In this document: positions 18,793 to 43,642 of the stretch, in pieces
Position numbering within the stretch: position 1 is the first letter of the stretch
Layout: every line of letters starts with the position of its first letter
Virus record (IMG/VR): IMGVR_UViG_3300035074_000056
Location: 1-52,529 of that record
DNA: 52,529 nt
From: a virus
Taxonomy: Duplodnaviria; Caudoviricetes
Reading direction: 5' to 3' (one strand)
Made by a program: the position numbers and the translations under genes
The notes under the pieces: generated by a model
What the model saw: only the letters and a program-made list of their open reading frames with translations
Database searches by the model: none
Told to the model about the DNA's origin: nothing

Positions 18793-19671
18793 ATGGAACC
18801 TAAAAAAACTGAAGGTCTTGTTGCTGAAGCAATCAAGGCTCAAGTAAACCCTTTTGCCAAAGGGGTTAAAAAACGCACGGACAAGGTAGCCATCGTCGGC
18901 TTTGCGCCTTCGAGCATGAACCTTGCCCCCTGGCTGGACGAGTCTTGGGAAATCTGGACGCTGAATAACATTTATTCAGCGTTCCAGCCCGGACAGCCGT
19001 TCCGCTGGGATCGCTGGTTTGAAATGCACCCGAATTTCCGGCAATATGCGCCGTTTCAAGACATCCGCATGGACGCCGGGAGCATCGTGCGCGGGGATAA
19101 CCGCCCCAGCAATGTGGTGAAAATCGAGCATATCGACTGGCTGAAAGCACAAGGCCCGGAGAAGCCGATCTATACACTGAAGGATGAGCCGGACATTCCG
19201 GGCGCGGTGCCTTATCCGATTGAAGAAGTCAAAGCGTGGTGTGAAAAAGAGGGTTTGGCCCCCTACTTCAGTAATTCGATCAGTTACATGATCGTTAAGG
19301 TGCTGATGGAAAGCAAAGTCGCAACCGGCAACCCTGACGGCTATGAAGAACTAGGGGTGTGGGGTGTGGATATGGCCGCCGGGGGCGAGTACCAAATGGA
19401 ACGGCCTTCGGTGGAATACTGGCTTGGAGTGGCTAAGAAGTATGTCAAAGTCGTGCTACCGAAAGAATGCGAGCTGTTGAAAGCGCGCCTGTATGGCTAC
19501 GAGTCCGATAGTGACTTTGTGGCCAAGATCAAAACGCGTCACGGCGAACTCGCAGGCAACATGAACCGCGCCATGATGCAACAGCGGGAAGCGGAAAATG
19601 CCGCCAATTACTTCCGGGGCGCGGCGGATGACTGTTCATATATTTTGACCAACTGGGGAAACGGAGCGTAA
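18793..19671 (+). CDS. Candidate nonulosonic-acid transferase (Maf/sialyltransferase-like fold)
   Basis: KVAIVGFAPS...W.LN, SNSISYM and EELGVWGVDM resemble the IVGxGPS...N and IxxxGxD motifs of GT29/GT42/Maf-type CMP-sugar transferases; family assignment is by eye only. Confidence 0.5.
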   Translation: MEPKKTEGLVAEAIKAQVNPFAKGVKKRTDKVAIVGFAPSSMNLAPWLDESWEIWTLNNIYSAFQPGQPFRWDRWFEMHPNFRQYAPFQDIRMDAGSIVRGDNRPSNVVKIEHIDWLKAQGPEKPIYTLKDEPDIPGAVPYPIEEVKAWCEKEGLAPYFSNSISYMIVKVLMESKVATGNPDGYEELGVWGVDMAAGGEYQMERPSVEYWLGVAKKYVKVVLPKECELLKARLYGYESDSDFVAKIKTRHGELAGNMNRAMMQQREAENAANYFRGAADDCSYILTNWGNGA

Positions 19672-19674
19672 AAA

Positions 19675-20034
19675 ATGGGCTTAGGCACATTCAGTGTTTT
19701 GAATTTTGAGGCGGTTACTACTGTTGCAAGCAGCAGTTCACACACCGACGCTATCAATTTAAACGGTAATGTGCCTGTTGGGCTGATCGTATCCACGAAT
19801 ACGCTTGTTTCCACCTCAATCACGTTTGAAACCGCCAAAGGCAGCACGCACACGTTTTACGCCCTGGTCAGCAGTTCTGGCGGGGCAGTTACGGTGAACA
19901 CCTCTACCCAAGCCGCACAGCAATACAAGATCGATCCGACTTGGTTCTACGGCGCGGATTTTATCAAATGCGTGATGTCCTCCACTTCGGACGTAAACAA
20001 GACGTTGACGTGGGTTACGCGCCCAATCGCTTAA
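19675..20034 (+). CDS. Ser/Thr-rich putative virion protein
   Basis: 35 of 119 residues are S/T by hand count; late-operon position. Confidence 0.65.
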   Translation: MGLGTFSVLNFEAVTTVASSSSHTDAINLNGNVPVGLIVSTNTLVSTSITFETAKGSTHTFYALVSSSGGAVTVNTSTQAAQQYKIDPTWFYGADFIKCVMSSTSDVNKTLTWVTRPIA

Positions 20035-20046
20035 GGAGAGTTTTTA

Positions 20047-20625
20047 ATGGATCACAATGTGCAAACAGATGTCGGATTTGGCGGATCTGTAGCAGGCAGC
20101 GGCGGTTTGGGCCTGCATGGCCGCGCGCCTCGTTCTTTGTACCATGTGGAATGCGTGGCCCCGGACGGCACCGTGCGCTGGACGGCTGATTGTGGCAACG
20201 TCGTTACGCTCGACGGGCGGATCATGTTGCTGGATCGATTCTTTAAGGGATCCACCTACACGGCGGCTTTTTACGTGGGGCTGATTAAATCCACGCAGTC
20301 TCCGAACTCTACGGACTACATGGCCTCGACCACTCGGGATTGGAGCGAATCCACCTGCTATTCAGATGGCGCTCGCCGGACATTGACTTTGGGCACTGTT
20401 TCTACAGCTTCGGTGGATAACTCAGCCAGCAAGGCCAGCTATACTATCAACCAGACCACGGAAGTCTTCGGCGCGTTCGTCACCAATAGTTCGCAGATTT
20501 CCACCGGCAGCACCTATGTGCTGTACGGTGCGGCGGTGTTTGATACCCCGTCATCCTCCGGGCGCTCGGTGGTGTCTGGGGATACGCTGAATATCACAGT
20601 AACGCTGACCGCATCCACAAGCTAG
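20047..20625 (+). CDS. Putative fibre-associated virion protein
   Basis: NVVTLDG...YVGLI...SGDTLNITVTL pattern seen in phage fibre-base proteins; AAGGAG RBS; 9 ST dipeptides. Confidence 0.65.
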   Translation: MDHNVQTDVGFGGSVAGSGGLGLHGRAPRSLYHVECVAPDGTVRWTADCGNVVTLDGRIMLLDRFFKGSTYTAAFYVGLIKSTQSPNSTDYMASTTRDWSESTCYSDGARRTLTLGTVSTASVDNSASKASYTINQTTEVFGAFVTNSSQISTGSTYVLYGAAVFDTPSSSGRSVVSGDTLNITVTLTASTS

Positions 20626-20664
20626 GTGCGGCATAACGACCCTATCCTAACAAAGGTGATTTAA

Positions 20665-22755
20665 ATGTCCAGCGTCGGCCCTCAGTATGCTGGCTCAGGC
20701 GCAGAGGTCAACCACGCTTCAGGGACAGTCGCTTGGACTAGCGAAACAAACATAACTTCAGACGATAATAATACGGCTGATTGTGCGTTTGGGTCCGGTT
20801 CCGGCGCTTCCTCCGAATGGCTAGTCAGCAGCAGTCATGATTTTTCGGCGATCGGCAACAGTGACACCATTGATGGGATTGTCGTTGAAATTGGGATTAA
20901 GGCGTCCACCGCCAACCGCTGTTCCGATACCGATGTTTTCCTGACCAAAGATGGCACCAACACGGTCGGGACTGATCAGGCCACCGGCACCAACGTGACG
21001 GGCACCGAAGTCAACCGAACTTATGGCGCATCAAACAGTCTTTGGGGCACCACTTGGACAGCAGCCGAAATCAAAGCATCTACCTTTGGTTGCATGTTCC
21101 GCCTCCTGCAAGGGCTTGGGGCAACGACAGCCAACGTCGATTATATCCGGATCACGGTTTACTATACCGCTGGTTCAACCACTCACGAAGTTACTTCAAC
21201 ACTAGGTATGCGTGCGGGGGCCAAAACTTCCGCCGTCGCGGTCCTCGCTGCCGCATCCGTTCCGCTGGTGTCGCGGCAGGGGCTTGCCCTTGCCGCGTCC
21301 AGGGGCGCGGAAGTCAATATTGCCTTAGGTAGTCGGCAAGGGCTCACCAACGCAGCCGCTTGGAGTTTGGGCAGCTCGATTACCCTGGGGTCTCGCCACG
21401 GACTTTCTGAAGCCGTGTCGCTTACCCTGGATCCTGATTTAAGTTTAATCAGCCGGTTGGGGTTAAATAATACCCCCATTGCAAGCCTGGGCAATTCTTT
21501 GTCCTTTGGCTCCCGGCTGGGGTCTGCCTTCTCTGGACTCCTCACTATTCCCACCGCCATGACGTTCGGCACCCGGCAAGGGGCGTCGATGGTTGGCAGT
21601 ATCGCCTACCCGCTCGCGATCGCCTTGGGCACCCGGCAAGGCTTAAGCCTGGCAGAAACCCGAAGTGTCTACACAGCGATTGCTTTGGGCGAACGTTCCG
21701 GCTTGTCGGATTCGGTGCTACTGACTCACGGTCCGGCGCTGTCCCTAGGCTCCCGCTTGGGGCTCTCAGAATCGGTATTGCTGACCCTGGCAGCGGCCAA
21801 CACTTTCGGCACCCGACAAGGCGCGGGATTTGTCGGGGTTCTGTCGATTCCGCTGGCTCAGAGTTTCGGTGTTCGTTCCGGGCTCTCTATTATCGGCGGG
21901 CTGGCATACGAAAACGCTGTGAGCCTGGGCGCTCGAACCGGCTTGAGCCATGCCGGAAGCCTGACATACAACTATTCAATCAGCCTGGGCAATCGCTTAG
22001 GGCTGAGTTACTCACCAAATCTCATCTCTACACCTACGGTCCTTTTGGGGGCAAGAGTCGGGGAGGCCGTTTCGACGGTTTTGACTCAGGCCCCCGCCCT
22101 TTCTTTTACGGCAAGGATGGGGCAGGGTGAAGGCGGTTTGCTGACCATTTCAGCCAGCTTGCCGATGGTGGTCCTGCAAGGATTACATTTCCCCGGTAAT
22201 TTCACCCTGGAAAACTCGGTTGGCTTCGGGGCGCGGCTGGGTTACTCGGATATCGGCGGGAAAGTCGTTTCCTCTGCCATCACCCTAGGCAACCGGGTAG
22301 GCGTTGGCTTATCGGCTAACCTCACCATCAACACCGCAATCCCACTGGCAACCCGGACGGGATACGAAGCAGACGTTACTCTGAATCTCGGGCCTGCGGT
22401 TTCCCTGGGCGCTCGCGCGGGGCTGAGCGAATCCGTCACCATGACCGGGGCGCCTACAATCACCTTCGGGGCTTCCCTGGGCGCGGCGCTTGTCAATGCC
22501 CTCACGATGGGACAGAGCGTTTCCATCCCGGTGCGGGTGGGCCTGGAAAATGATTCCGCCGAATATCCCGGAACACTCACGCTCAATGTTTCAGATGTCA
22601 GCACCCTGGCTGAAGCTCTGAGCGACAGCAGCAGCGTGACACTGGCACTCACTGAATTCGGCACCTTGACAGGAGCCTTTACCTCATTTAGCACCCTGAC
22701 CGGGACCATTGTGGCAGTCAGCACCTTGACCAGTACGGAGACAACGCTTCCATGA
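20665..22755 (+). CDS. Repetitive head/neck fibre-like protein
   Basis: N-terminal globular domain, about 23 repeats of 20 aa (xxLGxRxGL...), then about six 10-aa repeats. Confidence 0.7.
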   Translation: MSSVGPQYAGSGAEVNHASGTVAWTSETNITSDDNNTADCAFGSGSGASSEWLVSSSHDFSAIGNSDTIDGIVVEIGIKASTANRCSDTDVFLTKDGTNTVGTDQATGTNVTGTEVNRTYGASNSLWGTTWTAAEIKASTFGCMFRLLQGLGATTANVDYIRITVYYTAGSTTHEVTSTLGMRAGAKTSAVAVLAAASVPLVSRQGLALAASRGAEVNIALGSRQGLTNAAAWSLGSSITLGSRHGLSEAVSLTLDPDLSLISRLGLNNTPIASLGNSLSFGSRLGSAFSGLLTIPTAMTFGTRQGASMVGSIAYPLAIALGTRQGLSLAETRSVYTAIALGERSGLSDSVLLTHGPALSLGSRLGLSESVLLTLAAANTFGTRQGAGFVGVLSIPLAQSFGVRSGLSIIGGLAYENAVSLGARTGLSHAGSLTYNYSISLGNRLGLSYSPNLISTPTVLLGARVGEAVSTVLTQAPALSFTARMGQGEGGLLTISASLPMVVLQGLHFPGNFTLENSVGFGARLGYSDIGGKVVSSAITLGNRVGVGLSANLTINTAIPLATRTGYEADVTLNLGPAVSLGARAGLSESVTMTGAPTITFGASLGAALVNALTMGQSVSIPVRVGLENDSAEYPGTLTLNVSDVSTLAEALSDSSSVTLALTEFGTLTGAFTSFSTLTGTIVAVSTLTSTETTLP

Positions 22756-23039
22756 CAATCTCAGCCGCTCCCAAGGGTCAGGTCTACCGGGTGCAAACGA
22801 CCATCACCACCAACAGCACAGCGGTAACACCTACAGGGATCACGTTGTATCTCATCAGCCCAGCGGGGGTTGCCACCACCTACACCTCTTCACAGATGAC
22901 GAACTCCAGCACAGGTGTCTACTACTACGATTACACCATCGCGGCTGAAGGGATGCACTATTACAAATGGGTCACGACCGGAACCGGCGCGGGGGCGAAC
23001 TCCGGGCAGTTCCGAGGGCTCGATACACCATTCGATTAA
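22752..23039 (+). CDS. Small Thr-rich Ig-like virion protein
   Basis: P.G..TTY...STGVYYYDY....GMHYYKW pattern; 27 of 95 residues are S/T. Confidence 0.65.
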   Translation: MTISAAPKGQVYRVQTTITTNSTAVTPTGITLYLISPAGVATTYTSSQMTNSSTGVYYYDYTIAAEGMHYYKWVTTGTGAGANSGQFRGLDTPFD

Positions 23040-23059
23040 GTCAATTGGAGGCGGAAACC

Positions 23060-23803
23060 ATGAGACTAGCCATCATTCCCGCGCGGGGCGGGAGCAAGCG
23101 CATACCGCGCAAGAACATCAAAGAGTTTCAGGGCAAGCCGATTATTGCGTATGCGATAGAGGCGGCGCTGGCGTCTAAATGTTTTGATATGGTTTTAGTC
23201 TCGACCGATGACGAGGAAATCAAGAATTTTGCGCGGGCGAACGGGGCATACACACATCCACGAAGCGAACTGAATGCCAGTGACACCGCCGGAACCGTGC
23301 CTGTATTGCTGGAAGCGCTAGATTGGCAGCATAAAACATTCAGCATTCAGACAGACGAAATCTGTTGCATTTACCCTTGCAATCCATTTCTGACGGCTTG
23401 GGGGCTTTGGTACGCATATACGCGCCACAAGAAAACCAATGCAGACAGCACTTTCCCTGTCGTGAAGTACAGCTATCCCCCACAACGGGCGCTAAAAATC
23501 ACCAAATGCAAAGCCGAAATGCTCCACCCTGAGCATTACCCAACCCGCTCACAGGATTTAGAGCCTATCTACCACGACGCTGGGCAATTCTATTGGCTGA
23601 ATACAAAAGCCCTGCTTGAGCAGCAAAAACTCTTCATGAAGCGTTCAACCCCCTTGATCTACAACGAACTTGAAGCACAAGACATAGACACGTTAGAAGA
23701 CTGGGCACTGGCGGAGGTGAAATACCAGTTATGGCGGAATACTCAGTTCTCATCATTGGCGCAGGAACCAAAGGGGCTTTCTACGACACCCCAGACAGCT
23801 TAG
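23060..23803 (+). CDS. pseF: Pseudaminic acid cytidylyltransferase (acylneuraminate CMP-transferase)
   Basis: AIIPARGGSKRIPRKNIKEF.GKPIIAYAI, VSTDD, RSQDLE..YHDAGQFYW, QDIDT.EDW..AE.KY. Confidence 0.9.
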   Translation: MRLAIIPARGGSKRIPRKNIKEFQGKPIIAYAIEAALASKCFDMVLVSTDDEEIKNFARANGAYTHPRSELNASDTAGTVPVLLEALDWQHKTFSIQTDEICCIYPCNPFLTAWGLWYAYTRHKKTNADSTFPVVKYSYPPQRALKITKCKAEMLHPEHYPTRSQDLEPIYHDAGQFYWLNTKALLEQQKLFMKRSTPLIYNELEAQDIDTLEDWALAEVKYQLWRNTQFSSLAQEPKGLSTTPQTA

Positions 23804-24678
23804 AGGTTTTGAGTCATGCGAAGGCGTTCTCAAAGCCCCCCTTTAATCTCGTGGGTTTTGTGGATCCCGACACCAGCAAAGCCGAAAAAGCGGCCTCGAG
23901 TTGGGGTGGTGAGGCTTTTCCTGATGTTGCCACTGCTTTTGATCGCCTTGGCAGCGTGGATGTTGTCACAGTGGCTGCGCCGGACGCCACGCACTCCGAA
24001 GTCTTGCGACAGCTCGTCGGCAAACCCTGCAAGCTGATTTTTGCCGAAAAGCCGTTTACCCGCAGCGCCGAAACCGCCAAGCAATTGCTGGCAGATTTTG
24101 AGGCTCATGGGCAGACGGTGGCAGTGAATTATACCCGCCGGTTTGCTTCCGGCTTTCAAAAGCTGGCCTCGCAAATCCTAACCGGAAAGCTAGGCAAATT
24201 TCTGGGTGGGTCTGGCTTTTATGGAAACGGACTCTTCCACAATGGCTCGCATATGTTTGACATGTTGCTGATGTTGGCAGGGGGTGTCCGGGTTAAATAT
24301 TTCGACCCATTTATTGATGCCAAACAGGATGACCCTAGTGTGTTTGCCTTGCTGACGGTCGGGCAGGCTCCGTTTTATCTGGGGGTTATCCCACGCTTTC
24401 ACGTCAATGCTTTTGAAGCAACGCTTTATTTCAGCAAAGCGGCGATCCGGATTACTGATGTTGGCAGACAGATTGAAATTCTACCTGCCGAACCCAGACC
24501 AGGCTATGAGGTCGAGTTCATTTATACAGAAGCAGACGGATCTTACTTCGCTGCTGATGACGACCCAATGACCGTTGCCGTCCAAAACATCGCCGACCAC
24601 CTAACCCACGGCACCCCACTCCTCAGCCCCGCAGAAAACGCCGTGCGCGTTCTGGAAATCTGCGAGGCCCTGTCATGA
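23731..24678 (+). CDS. Gfo/Idh/MocA family oxidoreductase
   Basis: LIIGAG Rossmann motif, AEKP, VNYTRRF, HNGSHMFD. Confidence 0.88.
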   Translation: MAEYSVLIIGAGTKGAFYDTPDSLEVLSHAKAFSKPPFNLVGFVDPDTSKAEKAASSWGGEAFPDVATAFDRLGSVDVVTVAAPDATHSEVLRQLVGKPCKLIFAEKPFTRSAETAKQLLADFEAHGQTVAVNYTRRFASGFQKLASQILTGKLGKFLGGSGFYGNGLFHNGSHMFDMLLMLAGGVRVKYFDPFIDAKQDDPSVFALLTVGQAPFYLGVIPRFHVNAFEATLYFSKAAIRITDVGRQIEILPAEPRPGYEVEFIYTEADGSYFAADDDPMTVAVQNIADHLTHGTPLLSPAENAVRVLEICEALS

Positions 24679-25589
24679 CGGCCATCGGTGCGGAAGAAAA
24701 AGCCGCAGTCATGAGAGTGCTGGATTCCGGGGTTCTCTCTGGCTTTCTGGCTGGCCAGCTTTACGGTGGGCCGGAAGTCAACGCCCTGGAAGAAGAATGG
24801 GCGGCTCACTTCGGTTTTAAACACGCCGTTGCCATGAATAGCGCTACCAGTTGCTTGATTGCAGCATGTGGGGCGGTAGGGGTAGGCACTTATAGCCAGG
24901 TGGTCGTTCCCTCTTTGACCATGAGCGCCACCGCTGCGGCTCCGAAGTTCTGGGGGGGCGATGTCATCTTCTGCGATATCGAACCGGACTACTTTTGTCT
25001 AGACCCTAAAAAAGTCCGCGATATTCCGGTGGTTAATGCCATCATTACGGTAGATTTGTTTGGGCAGTCTTCAAATCCCAATCTGAATAGTTGGAGCCTC
25101 TTTTACGACGATACACCCATCATCCAAGACGCTTCCCAGCGCCCAATTCCTGGCGGCTTTGGGGATATCGTTGTTCATTCCCTCAACTACCACAAGCATA
25201 TTCATTGCGGCGAAGGCGGGATGGCTTGCACGAATGATGATGAGCTGGCTAAAAAGCTTCGGTTAATCAGGAACCACGCTGAAAACGCCGGGGTTGATTA
25301 CTTCGGCTTCAACTTCCGCATGACCGAGATCGAAGCGGCCATTGCCCGCGTTCAGCTCACCAAGCTACCGGCTGAGATTCAACGGCGGCAAGAAAATGCA
25401 AGATTTATCAGGGATTTGGCTCCGGTGCGCCCCGGCTTTGATCATGCTTGGTATTTATACCCGCACACCACCCGGATTCCTGAAGGTTTCCGATATGCCA
25501 AACCGCTCTACAACCTGCCCGTGTTTAGTGCTGAGTCCTTACCTGTCACTGAACAAGTCTGGAAATCCATCTGGATGACGCGGCCATGA
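24675..25589 (+). CDS. DegT/DnrJ/EryC1/StrS PLP sugar aminotransferase (PseC-like)
   Basis: NSATSCL, FCDIEP, QDASQ, SLNYHKHIHCGEGG (PLP lysine), GFNFRMTEIEAA. Confidence 0.9.
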   Translation: MTAIGAEEKAAVMRVLDSGVLSGFLAGQLYGGPEVNALEEEWAAHFGFKHAVAMNSATSCLIAACGAVGVGTYSQVVVPSLTMSATAAAPKFWGGDVIFCDIEPDYFCLDPKKVRDIPVVNAIITVDLFGQSSNPNLNSWSLFYDDTPIIQDASQRPIPGGFGDIVVHSLNYHKHIHCGEGGMACTNDDELAKKLRLIRNHAENAGVDYFGFNFRMTEIEAAIARVQLTKLPAEIQRRQENARFIRDLAPVRPGFDHAWYLYPHTTRIPEGFRYAKPLYNLPVFSAESLPVTEQVWKSIWMTRP

Positions 25590-26173
25590 TTTTTATTAAA
25601 GGCGAACGGGTCATTCTAGAACCGCTGGACGAAAACCATTTAGGGACAGAGTATAAGCAATGGCTGAACGACCCAGAGATTAACCGTTTCACTTCTCGCT
25701 CTTCATATCCACTCAATTTGGCTGCCTGCAAGGACTATGTTCAAAGCTGTCAATCAGCCGAGCGCATAGTTCTTGCTATTTCTATAGAATTTCCAGGGCA
25801 GCCGCATTTCAAAATACACATTGGCAATATTTCTCTGCAAAAAATCAACCTTATTAATCGCACTGCCGAATTAGCCATCCTGATTGGAGAGCGTCAAGGT
25901 GAAGGCTACGGTCTGGAAGCCGCCAAGCTCGTTTGCGCCCACGGTTTCAACCAACTCGGCCTAAACCGCATCTACTGCGGCACCCATGCAGAAAACATCG
26001 GCATGCAGAAGCTGGCGCTCAAGCTGGGCATGCAGGAGGAAGGCCGCTCCCGCAAGGCTTTATTCAAAAACGGCGAATTTGCCGACGTGATTCACTACGG
26101 CATGCTTCAAGAGGATTTCATTAATGCCGATCTCGGTATCCACCAAAGCCAGCCATTATCCGATCACCCTTGA
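25586..26173 (+). CDS. GNAT N-acetyltransferase (RimJ/PseH-like)
   Basis: WLNDPEI, HIGNISL, AELAILIG...GEGYG, LNRIY, N.GM.KL..KLG..EG. Confidence 0.88.
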   Translation: MIFIKGERVILEPLDENHLGTEYKQWLNDPEINRFTSRSSYPLNLAACKDYVQSCQSAERIVLAISIEFPGQPHFKIHIGNISLQKINLINRTAELAILIGERQGEGYGLEAAKLVCAHGFNQLGLNRIYCGTHAENIGMQKLALKLGMQEEGRSRKALFKNGEFADVIHYGMLQEDFINADLGIHQSQPLSDHP

Positions 26174-26717
26174 AGAAGCCAAGGAACACCTTCGGGTTAC
26201 TGATACCAACAGCGATTCTTATATTCAAGGCTTAATTGCAATGGTGGCGGAACAGGTAGAAGCTCAAACCGGCAGAACACTCATTACCACGCAATACACC
26301 TGGAAGCTGGACGGGTTCCCTTGTGAATACATGATGTATGTTCCCAAGCCGCCGCTACAAAGCATTTCATCTATCACCTATATCGATACCGACGGCTCAA
26401 CGGACACCTGGGGATCAACCTACTACAGCGTTGACAACACCAGCATCCCGGCCCGGCTGTATCCGGCTTATCAGGAAACATGGCCAATTACTTTGAACGT
26501 CCCCAACGCCGTGACGATCACTTATGTAGCCGGGAGTAGCTACCTGGGCGGGGTCCCGGAAGGGTTGAAACACGCCATGAAATTCCTGATTGCTCACTAC
26601 TGGTCTAATCGTCAGGAGAGTGTGACCGCCGCCGCGCTGGTGACTTCGGTTAATACCCCCAAAGCTTCTGATTGGCTTCTAGCCAAGTATCAGGTGCCGT
26701 TCTTTGAGGGGTACTAA
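26124..26717 (+). CDS. Head-tail connector (gp6-like)
   Basis: PITLEEAKEHLRV, TGRTLITTQ, VTITYVAG, VP..LKHA....AH.W.NR. Confidence 0.85.
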   Translation: MPISVSTKASHYPITLEEAKEHLRVTDTNSDSYIQGLIAMVAEQVEAQTGRTLITTQYTWKLDGFPCEYMMYVPKPPLQSISSITYIDTDGSTDTWGSTYYSVDNTSIPARLYPAYQETWPITLNVPNAVTITYVAGSSYLGGVPEGLKHAMKFLIAHYWSNRQESVTAAALVTSVNTPKASDWLLAKYQVPFFEGY

Positions 26718-31969: not shown

Positions 31970-35475
<3,506 letters not shown>

Positions 35476-35479
<4 letters not shown>

Positions 35480-36087: not shown

Positions 36088-36648
36088 ATGACACAGCGCG
36101 GGATGTCTTCCCAGTTTTCCACGCAACTGACACAAGACAGCATAACGATATATCACTTGTATCAGGCCCAGTTTCCGGATGGCACGATTTATTTTACCGA
36201 TCTGCCGTATGACACCACCTACGGCGGGAATACTTATACCGGGGCTGGCAGTGCGCTGGGCTACGACTCCATAGAAGAGGTTTCCGGCCTCCAATCCAAC
36301 GGCATTCGTATTTATTTCAACGCCGCAAACGTTTCTCTACTATCTGTATTACTGGATCAAAACCTAATTGATCGCCCGGTGTACGTCTATCGAGGCTTGT
36401 TGGATTCCAGCAACCAGCCGATCACTGATCCCTTGTTGATTTTTGAAGGGCGCAGCGATTCCGTAAGGCTTTCGGAAGATCCCGACAAGGGATCGCTCCA
36501 GCTTATCTTCGAATGTTTTGACGAAAACGTAGACTTTGAGCGGGTGAACGGTAGACGTTCAAATCATGAGGAGCAACAAGCCTTGTTCCCTGGGGATAAC
36601 GGTTTTGCCTTCATTGCAGACGGGATGGATAAAGTCACCAAATGGTAA
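36088..36648 (+). CDS. Tail tip/hub protein
   Basis: YTGAG, V.VYRG, FEGR.D, QQ.LFPGD.GF.F motifs typical of minor tail proteins. Confidence 0.75.
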   Translation: MTQRGMSSQFSTQLTQDSITIYHLYQAQFPDGTIYFTDLPYDTTYGGNTYTGAGSALGYDSIEEVSGLQSNGIRIYFNAANVSLLSVLLDQNLIDRPVYVYRGLLDSSNQPITDPLLIFEGRSDSVRLSEDPDKGSLQLIFECFDENVDFERVNGRRSNHEEQQALFPGDNGFAFIADGMDKVTKW

Positions 36649-37067
36649 TGAAAACTCAAAATTACCACAGGGCGCTGACCGATTATATCAACGCCTCTCT
36701 TAAGCTGCCCTTTGAGTGGGGCAAACGAGATTGCGTGACTTATGCCATTGGGGCCATCGAGGCCATGATCGGCAAAGAGGTCGAGAAGCCTGAATTTGCT
36801 TATACCACCGAAGAAGAAGCGCTTGAATTTTCCAAGTCCTGGAGCCTACAGGAAGGCATGATTGCGCAACTGAGCGCGTATGAAGTACCCCATAAGTTCC
36901 ACCAGCCTGGGGATATTGCGATTGTCCGAAGGGATGGGTTCGAATGCTGTCATGTGGTGTTTGATCGCCGGGCTTATGCACCGCTTTTGGATGATGTGGT
37001 GCGGGCATTCAGCGTTCACAAACTCTATGAAGAATGCCCGGACGCTAAAATTCTGAGGTTCGATTAA
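36648..37067 (+). CDS. NlpC/P60-like tail-tip assembly protein
   Basis: PFEWGKRDC...A....AM.G and PGDI motifs. Confidence 0.75.
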   Translation: MKTQNYHRALTDYINASLKLPFEWGKRDCVTYAIGAIEAMIGKEVEKPEFAYTTEEEALEFSKSWSLQEGMIAQLSAYEVPHKFHQPGDIAIVRRDGFECCHVVFDRRAYAPLLDDVVRAFSVHKLYEECPDAKILRFD

Positions 37068-39820
37068 TGCCGCCAGTCGTGGCAATCATTAGTGCCGTTA
37101 ATGCTTACCTGGCAGCACACGCCATCATTGCGGCAGTCGTGGGGGCGGTACTCTCAGCCGGGGTTAGCTTGGCGGCCAATGCCCTTTTTACCAGCAAGCC
37201 TAAAAAAGCCGCTTTTGGCAGTGTCTCTAACCTGTCTCGTGAAATCATTGAAAATAAGAAATCCACCGTTGAGTTTATTCCTATAGTCTACGGCCAACAC
37301 AGAGTTGGTGGGATTCAGGTCTATGAAGAGGTTTCCAGTAGTTATCTTTATCTGGTAGTGGTTTTCTGCGAAGGCACTATTAGCGCGGTTGATACCATTT
37401 ATATTGATGGTGTAGCGGCTACGGACAGCCGGTTTTCAGGACTGGTAGACGCCTATACTTTTCTAGGGGCGGACGACCAGAGTGTCACTGGCTGGACGCA
37501 TGCCATTGGTTCTGGGCCTGCGGATTTCATTTCAGCCGGTGCGCCGGGGTGGACTGCCAACCATAGGCTTTTGGGTTGTGCGGGCGTGGCTTTACGGCTC
37601 AATAAAAACACAGATGTCTTCCCACGGATTCCGCAGGTTACTGGCATTGTTAATGGCCGGAAAGTTTACGACCCGCGCGATCTCACGACCAAGTACACCA
37701 CCAACCCGGCTTTGTGCATTCGGGATTATTACACTAATACCCGTTTCGGCGCGAAGATTGCCAGCTCCCGGCTGGATGATGATAGTTGGACAGACGCTGC
37801 CAACTTCTTCGAGACTACCACGGACTACGGCAACGGCACCCAATCCCGGTTCAAAATGAACGGCATCGTGGACACCAGCCAGCGCGTTTGGGACAACATC
37901 GAGGACTTGATGCGGTCCTGCAACAGTCTACCCAAGCGGGTTAATGGCAAGCATGGCATCCTGCCCCTGAAGTCGGAAACGGTCGGCTTTAACTTCACAG
38001 ATGACAACGTGGTGGGCGGGATTTCCGTTGAGCGCCTCGGGAAGCGTTTCAAGAAGAATAAGATCAATGCCCAGTTTATCAACCCGGATAATAACTGGCA
38101 AGCAGACCTTTATGTGGTTTCAGATGCCACGTACAAGGCGCAAGACAACAACATCGATCTAACCAATGAGCTGGAATTGCGCCATGTGACTGATTGGTAT
38201 CAGACTTCACACATTGCCCGCATTGCCTTGAGGCAATCCCGACTGGAAGAGAAATACAATTTCACAGCTTCCCACGAGGCTCTGAAATGTGAAATCGGCG
38301 ATGTCGTAGACCTTACCCATAGCGTGTATGGCTTCTCTGGTAAACAAATGCGCGTCACCAGCATTACCATTGAGCCCAATGGCACCATTGGCATCGGCGC
38401 TGAGGAATACGACAGCAGCGTTTACACCGTCAGCACTGCCAATGCGCCCAATGCTGGAAGCACGACCAGCTTCGGAAGCCCGTTTGATATCGACGCCCCC
38501 GGTACGCCGTCGGTCTCGGAAACCTTCACCACCAACAGCGCGGGCTTTGTAGTCAACGTCGCCACCCTTTCATGGGCTGCCCCCGCCAGCGCTCAGGTTT
38601 CAAAATACATCGTGGAGTACAAACTCTCCAGTTCTTCCGACTGGATCAAGGCTGGGGAGCCGCAGACCACCACGTTTTCCATCAGTGATATCGTGGCGGG
38701 CACCTATGACTTTGCCGTGTCTGCCGTCAACACCATAGGCCGGATCAGCGACCGGGCTAGCCGTACCAGTGTCAGCATCGTCAACAACACCGACACCCCC
38801 GCCGATGTGACCGGCTTTTCCCACGAGTTCACCAGCGATAACCAGATTGTTTTGCGCTGGGATGAGAATTCAGACGTGACCGTGGGCGGCGGCTACCGGA
38901 TCAAGGTCAGTAACAAGACCAGCGGCGCGGCGTGGTCCGACTTCCCACAAATGAACGTGCTGATTGATGGACGAGAAACCACAGCCACTCTGGGCCTGCT
39001 GGAAGGCACGTACATGATGAAGGCTGAGAACCTGGCCGGGGTTCAAAGCGAAAACGCGGTTACTATCCCGGTGAACCTCCCGGATCATGATGAATGGGTC
39101 AACGTGGCATCCGTGACGGAATCCACGGCCTTTGCAGGAACGCACACGCAAACCGAGCTTTCCACCGGCACGCTGACCCTCACCGCTACCACCAGCGGCG
39201 GCTATTACACCTCTGGCAATTATGTTTACGCGAACCAGATGGATTTCGGCGGGAAGTTCGCCTTCCGGTTGACGCGGGTTTCGTCTGGAACCTTGTCCAA
39301 CACTGCCGCCAACTGGGATTCATTCACTGGCAATATCGACGACTACACCACTGTTTTGATCGATGATATGGCCGGACGGTCCACGGTAGACGTTAAACAC
39401 TGGTTTGCTACCAGTACCCAAAGCAGCACCGGGCCGTTTGGAGATCACCAACGGTTGCAGATGGCGGAAGGGGTGGCGCGTTATCTGAAATTTAAGACCA
39501 CCATCGACACCGAATCAAATACGGAAAACACCAATATCAGTGAGTTGGCGGTCTATGCCTGGATGAAACGACGGGCAGAGAGCAACTGGAACGTTTCCGC
39601 GTCTTCCACAGGCGCAACAGTGACATTTGCCGCGCCATTTTATACCACGCCCGCTATTTCGGTGTTTCCATTTAACGGCACCGCTGGGCAATACGTCACC
39701 GCCGCCACCAGCCAAGCCAGCCGGACAGGCTTTGAAGTGAGTTACTTCACGTCTTCCGGCGGACAGACGAGTGGAAAGTTCAGCTACGCCGCAATTGGAT
39801 ATGGCAAGGAGATTGTCTGA
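37067..39820 (+). CDS. Central tail tip/host-specificity protein (J-like) with FN3-like domains
   Basis: IPIVYG..RVGG, GRKVYDPR, NPALCIRDY, GDVV, AEEYD.SVY, LSW..P...Y.VEYK...YDFAVSAVN. Confidence 0.88.
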   Translation: MPPVVAIISAVNAYLAAHAIIAAVVGAVLSAGVSLAANALFTSKPKKAAFGSVSNLSREIIENKKSTVEFIPIVYGQHRVGGIQVYEEVSSSYLYLVVVFCEGTISAVDTIYIDGVAATDSRFSGLVDAYTFLGADDQSVTGWTHAIGSGPADFISAGAPGWTANHRLLGCAGVALRLNKNTDVFPRIPQVTGIVNGRKVYDPRDLTTKYTTNPALCIRDYYTNTRFGAKIASSRLDDDSWTDAANFFETTTDYGNGTQSRFKMNGIVDTSQRVWDNIEDLMRSCNSLPKRVNGKHGILPLKSETVGFNFTDDNVVGGISVERLGKRFKKNKINAQFINPDNNWQADLYVVSDATYKAQDNNIDLTNELELRHVTDWYQTSHIARIALRQSRLEEKYNFTASHEALKCEIGDVVDLTHSVYGFSGKQMRVTSITIEPNGTIGIGAEEYDSSVYTVSTANAPNAGSTTSFGSPFDIDAPGTPSVSETFTTNSAGFVVNVATLSWAAPASAQVSKYIVEYKLSSSSDWIKAGEPQTTTFSISDIVAGTYDFAVSAVNTIGRISDRASRTSVSIVNNTDTPADVTGFSHEFTSDNQIVLRWDENSDVTVGGGYRIKVSNKTSGAAWSDFPQMNVLIDGRETTATLGLLEGTYMMKAENLAGVQSENAVTIPVNLPDHDEWVNVASVTESTAFAGTHTQTELSTGTLTLTATTSGGYYTSGNYVYANQMDFGGKFAFRLTRVSSGTLSNTAANWDSFTGNIDDYTTVLIDDMAGRSTVDVKHWFATSTQSSTGPFGDHQRLQMAEGVARYLKFKTTIDTESNTENTNISELAVYAWMKRRAESNWNVSASSTGATVTFAAPFYTTPAISVFPFNGTAGQYVTAATSQASRTGFEVSYFTSSGGQTSGKFSYAAIGYGKEIV

Positions 39821-40164
39821 TGTCTGTTAACCCTGGCGAATTGCACCACACCACTCGTGGAATCGCTGAAATTAAGGACTTCTATACCGAGAACGGCATT
39901 CAAAAGGTGCGGTTCTGGCTGCATGTCGTAGAGCCTGAAGACGGCGTTACTCCCACCGGAGACGCTTTGCTGATGTCCACCACGCCGGACAAATTGCAAG
40001 CCTGGATCGATCGGTTCCCACGGGATATTTCAGAGCGTAAGCGGTCCGTGTCGGCCATGAAGGACATGTATCCGGCAGAGCGGGAGCGGGTGGATGGAAT
40101 CCTAGCAAGAATCAAAGAGGCGGAGGCCAAAGGGCCAAGCGTTAAGACCAAAAGGAAGCAATAG
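39820..40164 (+). CDS. Hypothetical protein
   Basis: 114-aa ORF translationally coupled between tail genes; AAGGAG RBS. Confidence 0.6.
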   Translation: MSVNPGELHHTTRGIAEIKDFYTENGIQKVRFWLHVVEPEDGVTPTGDALLMSTTPDKLQAWIDRFPRDISERKRSVSAMKDMYPAERERVDGILARIKEAEAKGPSVKTKRKQ

Positions 40165-40166
40165 CA

Positions 40167-41327
40167 ATGCCCTTGCATGACTACAACGCCGCCAACCAGA
40201 CCCCGGCGTCTTTTAGGACTGATTTAAACAATTTGTTTCTGGCTATAGCTGGGTGTAATGCCAGTTCCAGCGGCATTACAACCACATTCGGCCACATGCT
40301 TTATGCGGATGTCTCCTCCTCTGGCTGGATGCGGATGCGGAACGCGGCAGACAGCACTTTCAACTATATCTTCCCCTTGGGTGTTCCGGGTGGCATCTTC
40401 ACTTACTCCGGCAACCCCAGCACTAACCACGCTTGCAAATACCAAGGACAGCCGCTTTTTGACACCGCCAACAGCGCCTATTACATTGGGACGGCGGTAG
40501 GCACGTCTTCTTCTGCCACCTGGGCGCAAGTGCAATTCACCAGCAGTTTGACGCAGGGCTTCCCCGATGGTTATATCGCCGGACCGCCTCCCCAATATGC
40601 CAGCGCAGCCACCATTACCCTCCCGGCTGGGCTGAAATGTCGGAACAGCGCAGACACGGCAGATATTGAGTTCAGTACCGCCTACACGGTGGATATCACG
40701 GTATCTGGTTCCGGTGGGCTTTCCACGGACCTGACCGAAGCAGCTGGCACTTGGTACTATTTGTTTGCTATTCGTAAATCAGGGGATGGCACGATTAATG
40801 GTATTCTAACGACTGCTACCAGCGCTCCAACCATGCCCAGTGGATATAATCAATATCGAATGTTGCCGATTGCCCTACGTAACAACGCCAGCGGGGATCT
40901 TGTCCCGTTTTATATCGGCGTCGGCTGGCCGTATCGTCCGAAAATACTATGGCGCGATTATGAAGATATCCAGACCGGGAACCCCGGCACCGTGATTGCC
41001 GCTTATAACGTGTTGAACTCAGGGGTCTCGACTGCTTTTGCCGCCGTCTCGCTGGTGAGCCTAGTCCCGCCGATTTCCAAAAATGTCGACCTCGGCGTAC
41101 TGTACATCCCTGGCGGCAACCAATTGGGGAAAGCGTATACACGCCCGACAGGTTCAGGGTTGAGTAACGGACGAATGCTCGCAGCAGGCTATAACTCGGA
41201 ATTTAACGCCAGCATCGTCCCTGACGTGTTGACGGACGCTAGTCAATCCATTGATTATCTGACCGACAACGCAAGCGCACCTATCAGCCTGTGGGTGCGG
41301 GGCTTTGCCGTCACGGAGGTGAACTAA
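40167..41327 (+). CDS. Tail fibre/receptor-binding-like protein
   Basis: HDY..ANQ....FR.DLN..F.AI N-terminus and TWYYLF...PTMPSGY..YR motif of phage tail fibres. Confidence 0.75.
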   Translation: MPLHDYNAANQTPASFRTDLNNLFLAIAGCNASSSGITTTFGHMLYADVSSSGWMRMRNAADSTFNYIFPLGVPGGIFTYSGNPSTNHACKYQGQPLFDTANSAYYIGTAVGTSSSATWAQVQFTSSLTQGFPDGYIAGPPPQYASAATITLPAGLKCRNSADTADIEFSTAYTVDITVSGSGGLSTDLTEAAGTWYYLFAIRKSGDGTINGILTTATSAPTMPSGYNQYRMLPIALRNNASGDLVPFYIGVGWPYRPKILWRDYEDIQTGNPGTVIAAYNVLNSGVSTAFAAVSLVSLVPPISKNVDLGVLYIPGGNQLGKAYTRPTGSGLSNGRMLAAGYNSEFNASIVPDVLTDASQSIDYLTDNASAPISLWVRGFAVTEVN

Positions 41328-41409
41328 TGAAACTCTGTCGCAGACATATCGGCAGCGGCGCGTTTGACAACGCCGCCGATTATCCAAACACAAAAATTTA
41401 GGGGATTAT

Positions 41410-42216
41410 ATGAGGCGGATTTTAGTCTTAGGCGCAACAGGAATGTTGGGCCAAGCCCTGATGCAAGAGGGCGAGCGGCGCGGCTTTGAAATGATTGGAG
41501 GCCGGGTAGAGCTTCGGGATACCGAGGCCCTGATGGCCCATGTGGATTATCACCAGCCTGATTTGATCATTAACGCGGCGGCGGTTACGGATATTGCCGC
41601 TTGCGAAGAGAGCCCCGGCCTGGCGTATGAGATCAACACCCTGCCGGTTCTGGCAATAATCCAAGGAAACACACGGTTGGTTCAGATCTCCACGGATCGT
41701 TATTCGGATAATGTCTACGCAAAAACCAAGCAGGCCGCTGAAGATATCGCCTTGCTGAAGCCTGATAACCTCGTGGTCAGAACCAACATTGTCGGCTTTC
41801 GAGGCCACGGCAAGCCTACCTTTGCCGAATGGGCCATAGATGTCATTGAGACCGGGAAGCCGGTTACTCTCTTTGATGATTTCTATGCCCGCAGCATTGA
41901 TGTCTGGAGCTTTTCCGAGATTCTGTTTGATCTGCTAGAACTGGATATCAGCGGCAGGATTGATATTGCCAGCCGGGAAGAAGTGAGCAAAAAGCAATTT
42001 GTGGAAGCCCTGGCAGCGAAAATAGGAAAGCCCCTCAACGCCACGGTGGGCAGTATAAAAGGCTTGACACCCGCCAGATTGCCGCATTGTACACTGGATG
42101 TTAGCGGTGTTGAGCGTTTGCTTAGGCGACCCATGCCGGATCTGGATGATGTTGTTAATTCATTGGTTGAAAGGCGGAAACCATGTACCAACCCATTACT
42201 ATTAACGGACGGGTAA
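41410..42216 (+). CDS. RmlD-like NAD(P)-dependent sugar-nucleotide oxidoreductase (SDR)
   Basis: LVLGATGMLG, INAAAVTD...CE..P, QISTD, YAKTK (YxxxK), VRTN. Confidence 0.88.
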   Translation: MRRILVLGATGMLGQALMQEGERRGFEMIGGRVELRDTEALMAHVDYHQPDLIINAAAVTDIAACEESPGLAYEINTLPVLAIIQGNTRLVQISTDRYSDNVYAKTKQAAEDIALLKPDNLVVRTNIVGFRGHGKPTFAEWAIDVIETGKPVTLFDDFYARSIDVWSFSEILFDLLELDISGRIDIASREEVSKKQFVEALAAKIGKPLNATVGSIKGLTPARLPHCTLDVSGVERLLRRPMPDLDDVVNSLVERRKPCTNPLLLTDG

Positions 42217-43127
42217 TCAACGACAACAGCCCTGCTTTTTTCATCGCAGACATTGCCAGCAATCACGACAGCGACAAGCAGCGGGCGATCGATCTCATTC
42301 ATTTGGCAGCCGAGGCCGGGGCAGACGCCGTTAAATTTCAACACTTTCTGGCAGATGAAATTGTTTCAGACGAAGGCTTTCAGAAAGTGGGCAAGCAGTC
42401 GCATCAATCCGATTGGCCGCTCTCGGTTTACGAGACTTATAAAAAGTATGAGCTAAACCGGGAATGGACGGCCACGCTTGCCGAGGAAGCTAAAAAGGCC
42501 GGGGTGGCTTTTATGTCCACGCCTTACGATTTGGAAGCGGTGGGGCATTTGGATCCGTTTGTTCCGGCTTGGAAAGTGGGCAGCGGGGATTTTGATTATT
42601 TTCCATTGTTGCATGCCCTGCTCGAAACTGGCAAACCTATTATCTTTGCCACTGGCGCAACGGCCCAATGGGAAATTGAGGCAAGAATGCAAGGAATCCG
42701 TATTCAAGAAGCTCGCCAGCCCATTGCCCTCATGCAATGCAACACCAGCTACACCGGCAGCCTTGAGAACTTCAAATACATCAACCTGCGAGTGATCAAC
42801 TGGATGCGGGCCACTTTCCCCGGCATGACCATCGGGCTGTCCGACCACACCCCCGGCCATGCTACAGTGCTGGGCGCGGTGACGCTGGGCGCAAGGCTGA
42901 TTGAAAAGCATTTCACCGATGACAACAGCCGCATCGGCCCGGATCATGCGTTTTCCATGAATCCCACAACTTGGCGTGACATGATAGACCGCACCCGCGA
43001 ACTGCAAGCCGCGCTAGGGGGTGGCGTCAAACGGGTGGAAGAGAACGAGAAAGAGACTCGCATCCTGCAACGGCGTGGGAAATGGGTTGTCAACGGTCAA
43101 GAGAAATGGCTGAGGCCAGCACTATGA
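42183..43127 (+). CDS. Nonulosonic acid synthase (NeuB/PseI family)
   Basis: IADIASNH, AGADAVKFQ, FMSTPYD, KVGSGD, GLSDHT, IEKHFT, GPDH.FSM. Confidence 0.92.
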   Translation: MYQPITINGRVINDNSPAFFIADIASNHDSDKQRAIDLIHLAAEAGADAVKFQHFLADEIVSDEGFQKVGKQSHQSDWPLSVYETYKKYELNREWTATLAEEAKKAGVAFMSTPYDLEAVGHLDPFVPAWKVGSGDFDYFPLLHALLETGKPIIFATGATAQWEIEARMQGIRIQEARQPIALMQCNTSYTGSLENFKYINLRVINWMRATFPGMTIGLSDHTPGHATVLGAVTLGARLIEKHFTDDNSRIGPDHAFSMNPTTWRDMIDRTRELQAALGGGVKRVEENEKETRILQRRGKWVVNGQEKWLRPAL

Positions 43128-43642
43128 TCAAAGGCGAAAAGATCGGCCTGCGGGCGGTTGAGTTCAGAGACCTGAACCAACTTCAAGAATGGCGCAACAA
43201 GCCGGAGTTTCGGCAGTTCTTTCGCGAAAACCGGGAATTGAACTTTGAACAGCAAAAAAACTGGTTTCATGAAAAATGCCTCAAAGACCCAAAAACACGC
43301 ATGTTTTCAATTGTTTCACTAGGGGAAGAACACCTGATCGGCGCATGCGGGCTCTGTTATATCGACTGGGTTAATGGCAGCGCCGATCTTTCTATTTATA
43401 TCGGCCATAACGGCCTGTATATCGATGACGTTTACGCCCCTGATGCCGTGGAAACCCTCGTACAATACGCTTTTGAAGAAATGCGTCTTCATCGCCTCTG
43501 GACGGAAGTCTACAGCTTTGATGAAAAGAAACAGGCGCTTTTCCGCTCTCTGGGCTTTCAAGTAGACGGGATTCACCGGGAGACCTACTGGAAAGACGGA
43601 AAGTGGAATGATTCTGTCTTTTTCTCGTTACTGAACAACTGA
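43124..43642 (+). CDS. GNAT N-acetyltransferase (PseH-like)
   Basis: LRAVE..DL..L.EWRN, IGACGL..IDW.N..A, YAF.EM.LHRLW.EV, LGF..DG..R. Confidence 0.88.
   Translation: MIKGEKIGLRAVEFRDLNQLQEWRNKPEFRQFFRENRELNFEQQKNWFHEKCLKDPKTRMFSIVSLGEEHLIGACGLCYIDWVNGSADLSIYIGHNGLYIDDVYAPDAVETLVQYAFEEMRLHRLWTEVYSFDEKKQALFRSLGFQVDGIHRETYWKDGKWNDSVFFSLLNN

Follow-up and report, generated by a model that had tools for sequence, protein, structure and literature searches.

The window analysed here is a whole virus record of IMG/VR (IMGVR_UViG_3300035074_000056, 52,529 bases), the genome of a tailed phage in which genes for the synthesis of a nonulosonic acid, together with a candidate transferase for that sugar, are interleaved with the genes of the head and tail. 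Nonulosonic acids are surface sugars of animals and bacteria, where they are found in capsules, lipopolysaccharide (LPS), flagella and S-layers. The reading that we favour, with modest confidence, is that this temperate siphovirus-like soil phage makes its own nonulosonate activated with cytidine monophosphate (CMP) and uses it late in infection to glycosylate the proteins of its own particle. The sugar is taken to be of the pseudaminic acid (Pse) type because the route is initiated by PseB, and it probably carries an acetamidino group.

An earlier note on this DNA had described five blocks of sugar genes set between structural genes, and scans against Pfam, NCBIfam and PHROG, which covered all 39 + strand open reading frames (ORFs) of the operon, located all of them on the + strand (18793-19671, 22967/23060-26173, 28687-30988, 34461-35408 and 41410-43642). 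The hidden Markov model searches that the note had proposed for each family placed PseB, PseF and WbuX above the curated NCBIfam cut-offs (equivalog or subfamily), and the DegT, NeuB-family, Gfo, RmlD-like and amidase proteins and the two GNATs were matched at the family level. The genes of the five blocks are listed below with their lengths in amino acids (aa), profile scores and expect values (E).

18793-19671 (+): sialyltransferase/Maf-like (GT42/DUF115-fold) protein, 292 aa, so described from its predicted fold and its genomic associations
22967-23803 (+): PseF, CMP-pseudaminic acid synthetase (TIGR03584 equivalog, 276.8 bits against a cut-off of 205.7; CTP_transf_3); true start likely near 23060
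23731-24678 (+): Gfo/Idh/MocA-family NAD(P) oxidoreductase (PF01408, E 1.9e-16)
24675-25589 (+): short DegT/PseC-like aminotransferase dependent on pyridoxal phosphate, 304 aa (PF01041, E 1.5e-47, profile positions 5-253 of 360)
25586-26173 (+): GNAT acetyltransferase 1, PseH-like candidate (Acetyltransf_3, E 4e-23)
28687-29826 (+): WbuX/PseA-type N-acetyl sugar amidotransferase (TIGR03573, 331.7 bits against a cut-off of 203.2, profile positions 2-343 of 344)
29807-30988 (+): GatA-like amidase-signature enzyme (PF01425, E 9.9e-56)
34461-35408 (+): PseB, inverting UDP-N-acetylglucosamine (UDP-GlcNAc) 4,6-dehydratase (TIGR03589 equivalog, 513.1 bits against a cut-off of 407.75)
41410-42216 (+): RmlD-like reductase of the short-chain dehydrogenase/reductase (SDR) family (PF04321, E 6.5e-22)
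42183-43127 (+): NeuB-family nonulosonate synthase, 314 aa (PF03102, E 9.1e-70)
43082-43642 (+): GNAT acetyltransferase 2 (Acetyltransf_4, Acetyltransf_3)

In the established Pse-type route, UDP-GlcNAc is first taken up by PseB. The joint action of a DegT aminotransferase and a GNAT then yields a diacetamido sugar, a NeuB-family enzyme condenses it with phosphoenolpyruvate (PEP), PseF converts the product to the CMP-sugar, and WbuX/PseA-type enzymes give rise to acetamidino groups. For the window phage we infer the following order of steps, together with the acceptor, the late co-expression and the benefit that go with it. PseB (34461) would convert host UDP-GlcNAc to a 4-keto-6-deoxy sugar, the short DegT aminotransferase (24675) would form the 4-amino sugar, and one of the GNATs (25586 or 43082) would N-acylate it. 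Since the genome has no PseG, UDP would be released by an enzyme of the host or by an unrecognised one, after which the NeuB-family synthase (42183) would carry out the condensation with PEP and PseF (22967) would form the CMP-sugar. WbuX (28687) would turn an acetamido into an acetamidino group with the amidase (29807) as a putative source of ammonia, and the Gfo/Idh/MocA oxidoreductase (23731) and the RmlD-like SDR (41410) may change the stereochemistry or open a branch of the pathway. The GT42/Maf-like protein (18793) would finally place the sugar onto Ser/Thr residues of head proteins. The prime acceptor candidates are the small Ser/Thr-rich proteins encoded next to it; the capsid and the tail tube, the latter with Ser/Thr-rich C-termini, may also serve. 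The sugar genes would be transcribed late, together with the structural genes, and the phage may gain charge, stability or shielding.

Several of these enzymes depart from their characterised counterparts. PseC is the best NCBIfam match of the DegT aminotransferase (133 bits against a cut-off of 423.5), which is devoid of the C-terminal domain, its Protein Data Bank (PDB) alignments stopping near residue 290 of chains of 359-443 residues. GNAT 1 scores 27.8 bits on the PseH profile, with a cut-off of 93.1. The NeuB-family synthase lies under both equivalog cut-offs (NeuB, 242 against 399.65; PseI, 193.8 against 340.25), has no C-terminal SAF/antifreeze-like domain and aligns to residues 9-286 of the 349-residue Neisseria meningitidis enzyme. 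Short NeuB-type forms exist, as seen in a solved sialic acid synthase of 290 residues (6ncs). The ORFs of WbuX and the amidase overlap by 20 nucleotides (nt), and the pair is kept in the related record L064; the contig of another relative, L077, includes WbuX and ends within the amidase. Characterised WbuX-type systems have HisH/HisF-like partners instead of an amidase, and WbuX with a GatA-like amidase may represent an alternative ammonia-donor arrangement.

The gene at 18793 had been called transferase-like in the earlier note, and structure prediction supports this although the protein has no Pfam, NCBIfam or PHROG match. An AlphaFold 2 model built on the family alignment (predicted local distance difference test score, pLDDT, 84.8; predicted template modelling score, pTM, 0.74) shows an alpha/beta domain followed by a single long C-terminal helix (residues 241-288). 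In a Foldseek search of the PDB, all six matches at E <= 0.001 were Campylobacter CstII or Cst-I (E 2e-4 to 1e-3, probability 1.0), and the next ones were a Pasteurella sialyltransferase and human GT29 enzymes. VIA, a structure search independent of Foldseek that covered 48,161 chains, ranked Cst-I at the top (Z 9.8 over 165 residues, root-mean-square deviation 3.6), followed by archaeal MptE (DUF115; Z 8.8), the flagellin glycosyltransferase Maf (5mu5; Z 8.2), SteA and human ST8SiaIII (Z 7.8); these values have to be read against VIA's own note that Z 7-8 is common for unmatched models and that the range of Z 8-10 includes chance likeness of common folds. Because Z values of 7-8 are that common, the GT42/Maf-like fold is supported, not proven. 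The nearest annotated viral models in BFVD were DUF115 and GT29 proteins of a mimivirid.

Sequence profiles point weakly in the same direction as the predicted fold. The protein itself does not match PF06002 (CST-I) or PF01973 (DUF115) at the gathering threshold, and a DUF115 gene was not detectable in six frames of the genome. Among 46 family members, the two commonest Pfam matches at E <= 1 were MptE-like (4 members, best E 0.03) and CST-I (3 members, best E 0.0043), all of them sub-threshold. A family-invariant G191-x-D193 block aligns with CstII residues 123-161 in a weak profile match (E 0.3-0.7); this region is taken to be that of the nucleotide-sugar motif. The model thus supports a GT42/DUF115 sialyltransferase-type Rossmann-like fold for the 18793 protein, and we propose that it acts as a CMP-nonulosonate transferase.

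The family to which the protein belongs is large and carries no annotation. A word-indexed search returned 602 relatives, with no Pfam domain among the 120 listed, and a profile made from 46 relatives matched 5,510 cluster representatives at E <= 1e-3 (2,278 at E <= 1e-30) among 1.84 billion. A look for fused forms of the transferase gave 17 longer relatives; PF14890 is present in two of these, and no informative Pfam domain in any. Although the family comprises about 5,500 clusters (50% identity) and no fewer than 538 contigs of IMG/VR, it is nearly absent from cultured phages. One of 50,697 GenBank phage records matches it, namely that of Microcystis phage Mvi-Yong1342-1 (PP496355.1; locus L156, 8962-9765; 31.6% identity over 73% of the query). 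The Microcystis phage homologue is annotated as a 'type 11 methyltransferase', an annotation that is probably wrong, and sits just upstream of the terminase genes. Among the genomes of 185,579 species (one per species), 26 matches were obtained, all on contigs of metagenome-assembled genomes (MAGs) from many phyla; these are probably binned viral contigs. A prophage with a member of the family is present on a 1.74-Mb alphaproteobacterial MAG contig (locus L176).

The position of the gene in other viruses links it to the head module. A pattern scan of IMG/VR gave 538 stretches that encode relatives of the transferase, of which 80 loci were kept for the locus analysis; 78 distant loci, in which the transferase is 31-40% identical to that of the window, were analysed, and the close relative L077 was left out. 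A homologue of the gp6-like head-tail connector was found downstream of the transferase on the same strand in 40 of the 78 loci (median gap 178 nt). In 25 loci a homologue of the portal protein is encoded 3.4-7.7 kb upstream, and in 16 the large terminase (TerL) lies upstream. The reversed order was never seen in these 78 loci: the connector was never upstream and the portal never downstream. In all five loci scanned among 12 inspected by eye, the large upstream ORF matched Pfam Phage_capsid.

The same viruses tend to encode nonulosonate enzymes. NeuB (PF03102) was present in 25 and CTP_transf_3 in 26 of 45 family-bearing records; for each of the two, the proportion was 12 of 14 among records of at least 30 kb and 5 of 5 among those at least 90% complete. 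NeuB was present in none of 45 portal-related control records without the transferase family, controls that were shorter on average and imperfectly matched. Among GenBank phages in general the synthase is rare, the window NeuB matching only 3 of the 50,697 records. NeuC-type epimerases (9 of 45 records) and PseB-type dehydratases (10 of 45) both occur, so different phages probably make different nonulosonates. In all five loci with matches to TerL, NeuB and portal, NeuB lies between TerL and the portal gene; sugar genes in a morphogenesis operon are therefore recurrent and no quirk of the window genome. Many of the distant phages (L081-L155) hold a compact one-strand version of the arrangement. 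L155 (138-11587), for example, has TerL, CMP-transferase, NeuB, portal, protease, transferase and connector, and L151 (331-14802) has NeuB, CMP-transferase, portal, capsid, transferase and connector; small Ser/Thr-rich ORFs precede the transferase in both.

Small Ser/Thr-rich ORFs also surround the transferase in the window, where the order is capsid, 169-aa ORF, 146-aa ORF, transferase and 119-aa ORF. The features concerned, with their serine plus threonine (S+T) contents, are as follows.

17810-18319 (+): small Ser/Thr-rich protein, 169 aa, S+T 30%; no family match; kept in L002 and L077; candidate head-surface or acceptor protein
18330-18770 (+): small Ser/Thr-rich protein, 146 aa, S+T 25%; candidate acceptor or decoration protein
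19675-20034 (+): small Ser/Thr-rich protein, 119 aa, S+T 29%; kept in L002 and L077
20047-23039 (+): insert of three genes, encoding a 192-aa Ser/Thr-rich protein (phrog_8123), a 696-aa repeat protein and a 95-aa Ser/Thr-rich protein

In the distant loci, the ORF directly upstream of the transferase has a median S+T content of 23.3% (n = 73), compared with 12.6% for other + strand ORFs (n = 884; Mann-Whitney p 5e-19), a statistic that rests on crude ORF calls and on loci that are related and thus non-independent. At least one Ser/Thr-rich ORF (S+T at least 20%) lies directly upstream in 10 of the 12 inspected loci, and at least two in 8. Homologues of the 146-aa protein stand directly upstream of the transferase in five distant loci and in two close relatives. 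Leads from the Atlas for this protein are limited to viral beta-sandwich proteins, e.g. Phage_cement_2 in 29% of one cluster, and its own model is poor (pLDDT 47.7 from an alignment of 8 sequences). The three-gene insert is missing from L002 and L077; its 696-aa protein contains at least 16 copies of a 20-residue repeat of the G-x-R-x-G-L-S type and may be a head fibre or decoration.

The five blocks lie within one structural operon. The + strand gene run is unbroken from about 12.1 to 44.9 kb (33 kb) and holds all of them; its gaps are at most 82 nt with one exception, a gap of 205 nt behind the gene of the tail assembly chaperone (TAC). The ORFs of GNAT 1 and the connector share 50 nt, and only 2 nt separate the stop of the gene for the tape measure protein (TMP) from the start of pseB, both as the earlier note had given them and both for the longest ORFs. 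The structural and other genes of the operon are listed below.

12080-12565 (+): possible small terminase (TerS)
12408-14186 (+): large terminase, operon start (TerL_ATPase, TerL_nuclease)
14186-15457 (+): portal protein (Phage_portal, E 2.5e-101)
15454-16389 (+): S49-family prohead protease (Peptidase_S49)
16411-17733 (+): HK97-type major capsid protein (Phage_capsid, E 1.1e-37)
26124-27438 (+): gp6-like head-tail connector, head completion and tail completion proteins (PF05135, PF05521, PF11367)
27438-28659 (+): two paralogous major tail proteins in tandem (phrog_9522, phrog_4574)
31000-34458 (+): TAC, HK97-gp10-like protein and TMP (PF16459, PF04883, PF20155)
35476-41327 (+): distal tail, hub, DUF6950, Phage-tail_3 host-specificity-like, 114-aa and 386-aa proteins (homologues in L064, L065 and L066)
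43656-44871 (+): probable lysis genes, functions inferred, encoding a 98-aa hydrophobic protein, a YkuD-like protein and a 189-aa ORF
44901-44927 (+): strong intrinsic terminator, with an 11-bp stem (8 G-C pairs) followed by a T run, directly 3' of the last operon gene

The terminator at 44901-44927 was the sole strong one found in the scan of the operon. The two major tail proteins are 31% identical to each other, and the C-terminal tails of both are Ser/Thr-rich. The 386-aa protein is a probable fibre or receptor-binding protein. The 205-nt gap behind the TAC gene (31311-31969 region) possibly holds a frameshift extension, and the placement of the HK97-gp10-like gene between TAC and TMP is unusual. 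At the operon end, the protein with a likeness to YkuD (L,D-transpeptidase fold; 43949-44413), encoded behind the small hydrophobic protein, may be an unusual endolysin.

Relatives of the window in five other IMG/VR records, at 40-93% amino acid identity, cover the operon piece by piece. L002 spans TerS to DegT and L077 TerS to the amidase; L064 extends from DegT to GNAT 2 with every block in place, and L065 from the amidase to the tail genes with PseB behind TMP. In the more distant L066 (4506-5755), PseB sits behind the homologue of the 386-aa tail protein and directly ahead of the RmlD-like gene. The interleaving for which the earlier note had suggested searching viral databases is thus kept in four other metagenome records (L002, L064, L065 and L077), and the different place of PseB in L066 indicates that sugar genes change places inside the structural module. 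In the pathway, the RmlD-like reductase may follow PseB. Between the window and its relatives, the proportion of synonymous differences (pS) is saturated at 0.69-0.83, and that of nonsynonymous differences (pN) is 0.10-0.36 for sugar genes and 0.09-0.41 for structural genes. As the pN ranges are the same, selection keeps the sugar genes as strongly as those of the head and tail. The short lengths of DegT and NeuB are also kept in relatives (DegT in L077). Logan contigs from three soil-metagenome runs reproduce positions 18000-37999 with 0 differences, one run (X2) as a single 40.4-kb contig; this match tests the assembly, not independent occurrence, because the three runs may be source samples.

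Besides the limits stated above for the VIA scores, the control records and the S+T statistic, several points weigh against glycosylation of the phage's own particle with a self-made pseudaminic acid. The earlier note had recognised a pathway of the PseB-C-H-G-I-F type. PseB and PseF, above their cut-offs, stand, whereas PseG does not: TIGR03590, run against all six frames of the complete genome, had 0 matches at E <= 1, and an Epimerase_2 enzyme of the NeuC/LegG type was not found in six frames of the genome either. With no UDP-releasing enzyme, and with a synthase and an aminotransferase that lack their C-terminal domains, the pathway as written has a gap and could yield another sugar. 'Pseudaminic-acid-type' is therefore a working label, PseB and PseF lying above their cut-offs, PseG being absent and the counterparts of PseC, PseH and PseI being family-level matches. 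The closest solved folds, Cst-I and CstII, sialylate glycans and not proteins, so a host glycan could be the acceptor. Late expression would fit modification of the host surface before lysis equally well. The phage encodes an integrase and is temperate, and prophage genes that remodel host pseudaminic acid are known (PMC12053666).

These last points lead to the strongest alternative, which we regard as unlikely: that the CMP-nonulosonate of the phage goes to glycans or proteins of the host surface (LPS, capsule, S-layer, flagellin or pilin) and not to virions. Late in infection such a modification could mask receptors against the loss of progeny on debris or exclude superinfecting phages, and from the prophage it could bring about serotype conversion. 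The integrase fits this explanation, as do the lipooligosaccharide glycans on which the best structural matches, Cst-I and CstII, act, and the window has no second glycosyltransferase to build a glycan on a protein. There are precedents in print: prophage epaA and epaB convert Pse to 8-epi-Pse in the Acinetobacter baumannii capsule (PMC12053666), and phage O-acetyltransferases modify capsule nonulosonates (PMC12053666, PMC6586298). The layout of the genome speaks for the virion instead. Lysogenic conversion genes would be expected to form a discrete unit, equipped with a promoter and a terminator of its own and placed beyond the late operon or at its margin; the sugar genes form five scattered blocks inside that operon and do not make up a moron cassette near the attachment site or the tail-fibre end, and promoter-like and terminator-like sites within the operon were no more frequent than in shuffled sequence (consensus scans, which are weak evidence). 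In every distant locus in which those neighbours were detected, the transferase stands between capsid and connector. Its family is nearly viral-only (538 IMG/VR stretches against the 26 matches in genomes of 185,579 species), and small Ser/Thr-rich ORFs accompany it. The proposal of virion glycosylation made in the earlier note has thus gained from the fold, the place in the head module, the co-occurrence with NeuB and CMP-transferase and the Ser/Thr-rich ORFs, with host-surface modification of the kind described in PMC12053666 still alive as its competitor.

We consider it improbable that the sugar serves some other target, such as a non-structural phage protein, a small molecule or phage DNA, or that the genes, as an auxiliary metabolic gene set, only boost part of a host pathway and have no acceptor specific to the phage. 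The missing PseG would require a contribution from the host, and many family-bearing phages hold just NeuB and a CMP-transferase, PseB-type and NeuC-type enzymes being limited to the minorities given above; glycosylation of phage DNA is also well known, as stated in passages of PMC12619734. The co-occurrence of a dedicated sialyltransferase-like gene with the pathway argues against such a role, and its position in the head module would be hard to account for. Moreover, no hydroxymethyl-pyrimidine or DNA glycosyltransferase genes were found among the 20 non-operon ORFs scanned, most of which have no family match at all. That host DNA was misassembled into the viral contig to give the blocks, or that they are functionless decayed remnants, for which the shortened aminotransferase and synthase might be cited, is next to inconceivable in view of the independent Logan contigs (with the reservation on their source given above), the same gene order in four relatives from other metagenome records, a GC content that is level across the sugar-gene blocks, pN far below saturated pS for every sugar gene and the retention of the short lengths; the misassembly that the earlier note had named as a possible refutation is thereby contradicted.

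Glycosylation of the phage's own particle, the reading preferred here, has its closest functional precedent in mycobacteriophages, its closest mechanistic precedent in Maf flagellin glycosylation and its closest conceptual precedent in the machinery of giant viruses. According to passages of PMC12363180 and PMC12619734 that cite Freeman 2023, the capsid and the tail tube of mycobacteriophages receive glycans from glycosyltransferases that the phages themselves encode; in Che8, Corndog and Myrna, these enzymes modify the phage's own capsid or tail-tube subunits, and glycans at exposed termini shield the virion. In the same passages, virion glycosylation is shown only in a few mycobacteriophages, and glycosyltransferases are the only sugar genes mentioned for them. 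Mycobacteriophages would thus draw on host nucleotide sugars, whereas the window phage encodes most of a multi-step CMP-nonulosonate pathway. Modification of the virion has been demonstrated by experiment in mycobacteriophages, whereas the window phage is known from its genes. The window transferase has a predicted sialyltransferase/Maf-like fold.

O-glycosylation of flagellin by Maf with Pse or legionaminic acid (Leg) likewise uses a CMP-nonulosonate derived from UDP-GlcNAc in a route with PseB at its start and PseF at its end, a transferase of GT42/DUF115-like fold (the Maf 5mu5, Z 8.2), Ser/Thr-rich polymerising structural proteins encoded nearby and PseA/WbuX-type amidotransferases that lead to acetamidino variants. 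The window differs from it in the absence of PseG, the truncated aminotransferase and synthase, and the setting, a virus morphogenesis operon instead of a flagellar locus. The transferase is also smaller (292 aa against a chain of 632 residues), has a single long terminal helix and shows no DUF115 or CST-I sequence membership.

Giant viruses such as PBCV-1 and Mimivirus resemble the window phage in that the virus encodes both nucleotide-sugar synthesis and transferases for its own capsid or fibrils (PMC9614988). A CMP-activated ulosonic acid (Kdo) pathway has been predicted in silico in CroV and Fadolivirus, and the words 'sialic', 'pseudaminic' and 'legionaminic' do not occur in the searched text of that review (PMC9614988). 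The hosts of these viruses are eukaryotes, their genomes measure hundreds of kilobases and their glycogenes are clustered, in contrast to a 52-kb tailed phage with sugar genes interleaved with those of head and tail. The A. baumannii prophages with epaA and epaB, and the phages with O-acetyltransferases, are alike in that phage genomes carry nonulosonate enzymes, including a CTP_transf_3 domain and oxidoreductases (PMC12053666, PMC6586298). They are two-gene accessory cassettes that alter host Pse in the capsule during lysogeny and, as described in PMC12053666, come with no transferase, no synthase and no reported link to structural genes. No report of a phage-made nonulosonate donor or of a virion nonulosonate was found in the literature searched, most subscription journals lying outside the search; this agrees with the statement in the earlier note that no described phage makes its own nonulosonic donor for its virion.

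The genome in which the system resides is complete, as marked by an exact direct repeat at both ends; IMG/VR classes the record as direct terminal repeats, 100% complete. The features concerned are the following.

1-117 and 52413-52529: left and right copies of a 117-nt exact direct terminal repeat, confirmed by sequence comparison of both ends
5234-6403 (+): tyrosine integrase (Pfam Phage_integrase, E 1.1e-31)

The temperate lifestyle is deduced from the integrase. A gene transfer agent was considered and rejected in view of the terminal repeats, the integrase and the non-structural arms. The terminal repeat consists of short units in tandem, in which the motifs TACGAGGTTGGCTC and AACGAGGCTGGCACC recur; these units could be explained as iterons, as a site of packaging or as an assembly-end feature. 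The minus-strand arm carries a SpoU-family RNA methylase gene (46177-46680, -) and a 297-aa ORF with a HicA-like domain (50301-51194, -), and no tRNA gene was found in the 52.5-kb genome. The named relatives of TerL, which are 50-55% identical to it, belong to MAGs of Bacteroidales, Pseudodesulfovibrio and Desulfovibrio and are not decisive for the host; relatives of the capsid protein among GenBank phages are all below 40% identity.

We regard the window as the most elaborate representative of a phage system that is widespread and as yet undescribed, in which a sialyltransferase-like gene of the head module is linked to NeuB and a CMP-transferase. More tentatively, and with slightly less than even confidence, we suggest that the tailed phages of a large clade still without a name make sialic-acid-like sugars (of Pse, Leg or neuraminic acid type) themselves and cover their heads with them through a phage-specific GT42/Maf-like O-glycosyltransferase, that the conserved cassette of this clade consists of the major capsid gene, small Ser/Thr-rich acceptor proteins, the transferase and the connector, and that the window phage, which has some ten pathway genes dispersed among those of the head and tail, is the most autonomous of its members. 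In practical terms, the window offers compact nonulosonate enzymes (the NeuB and DegT forms without their extra domains, and the WbuX-amidase pair), a candidate pseudaminyl- or sialyltransferase acting on proteins for glyco-engineering, and a marker gene for such phages in metagenomes. If glycosylation of the virion is confirmed, small tailed phages would be found to carry a nearly self-sufficient donor pathway with a transferase of their own, an unannotated family of about 5,500 protein clusters would gain a function, and the conserved head-module cassette would be explained. It would also raise questions on the charge and stability of virions, their adhesion to matrices, their shielding from enzymes and grazers, and the mimicry of host surfaces in soil and water. 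Should the suggestion hold across the clade, the display of nonulosonates would be a common trait of virions in soils and waters.

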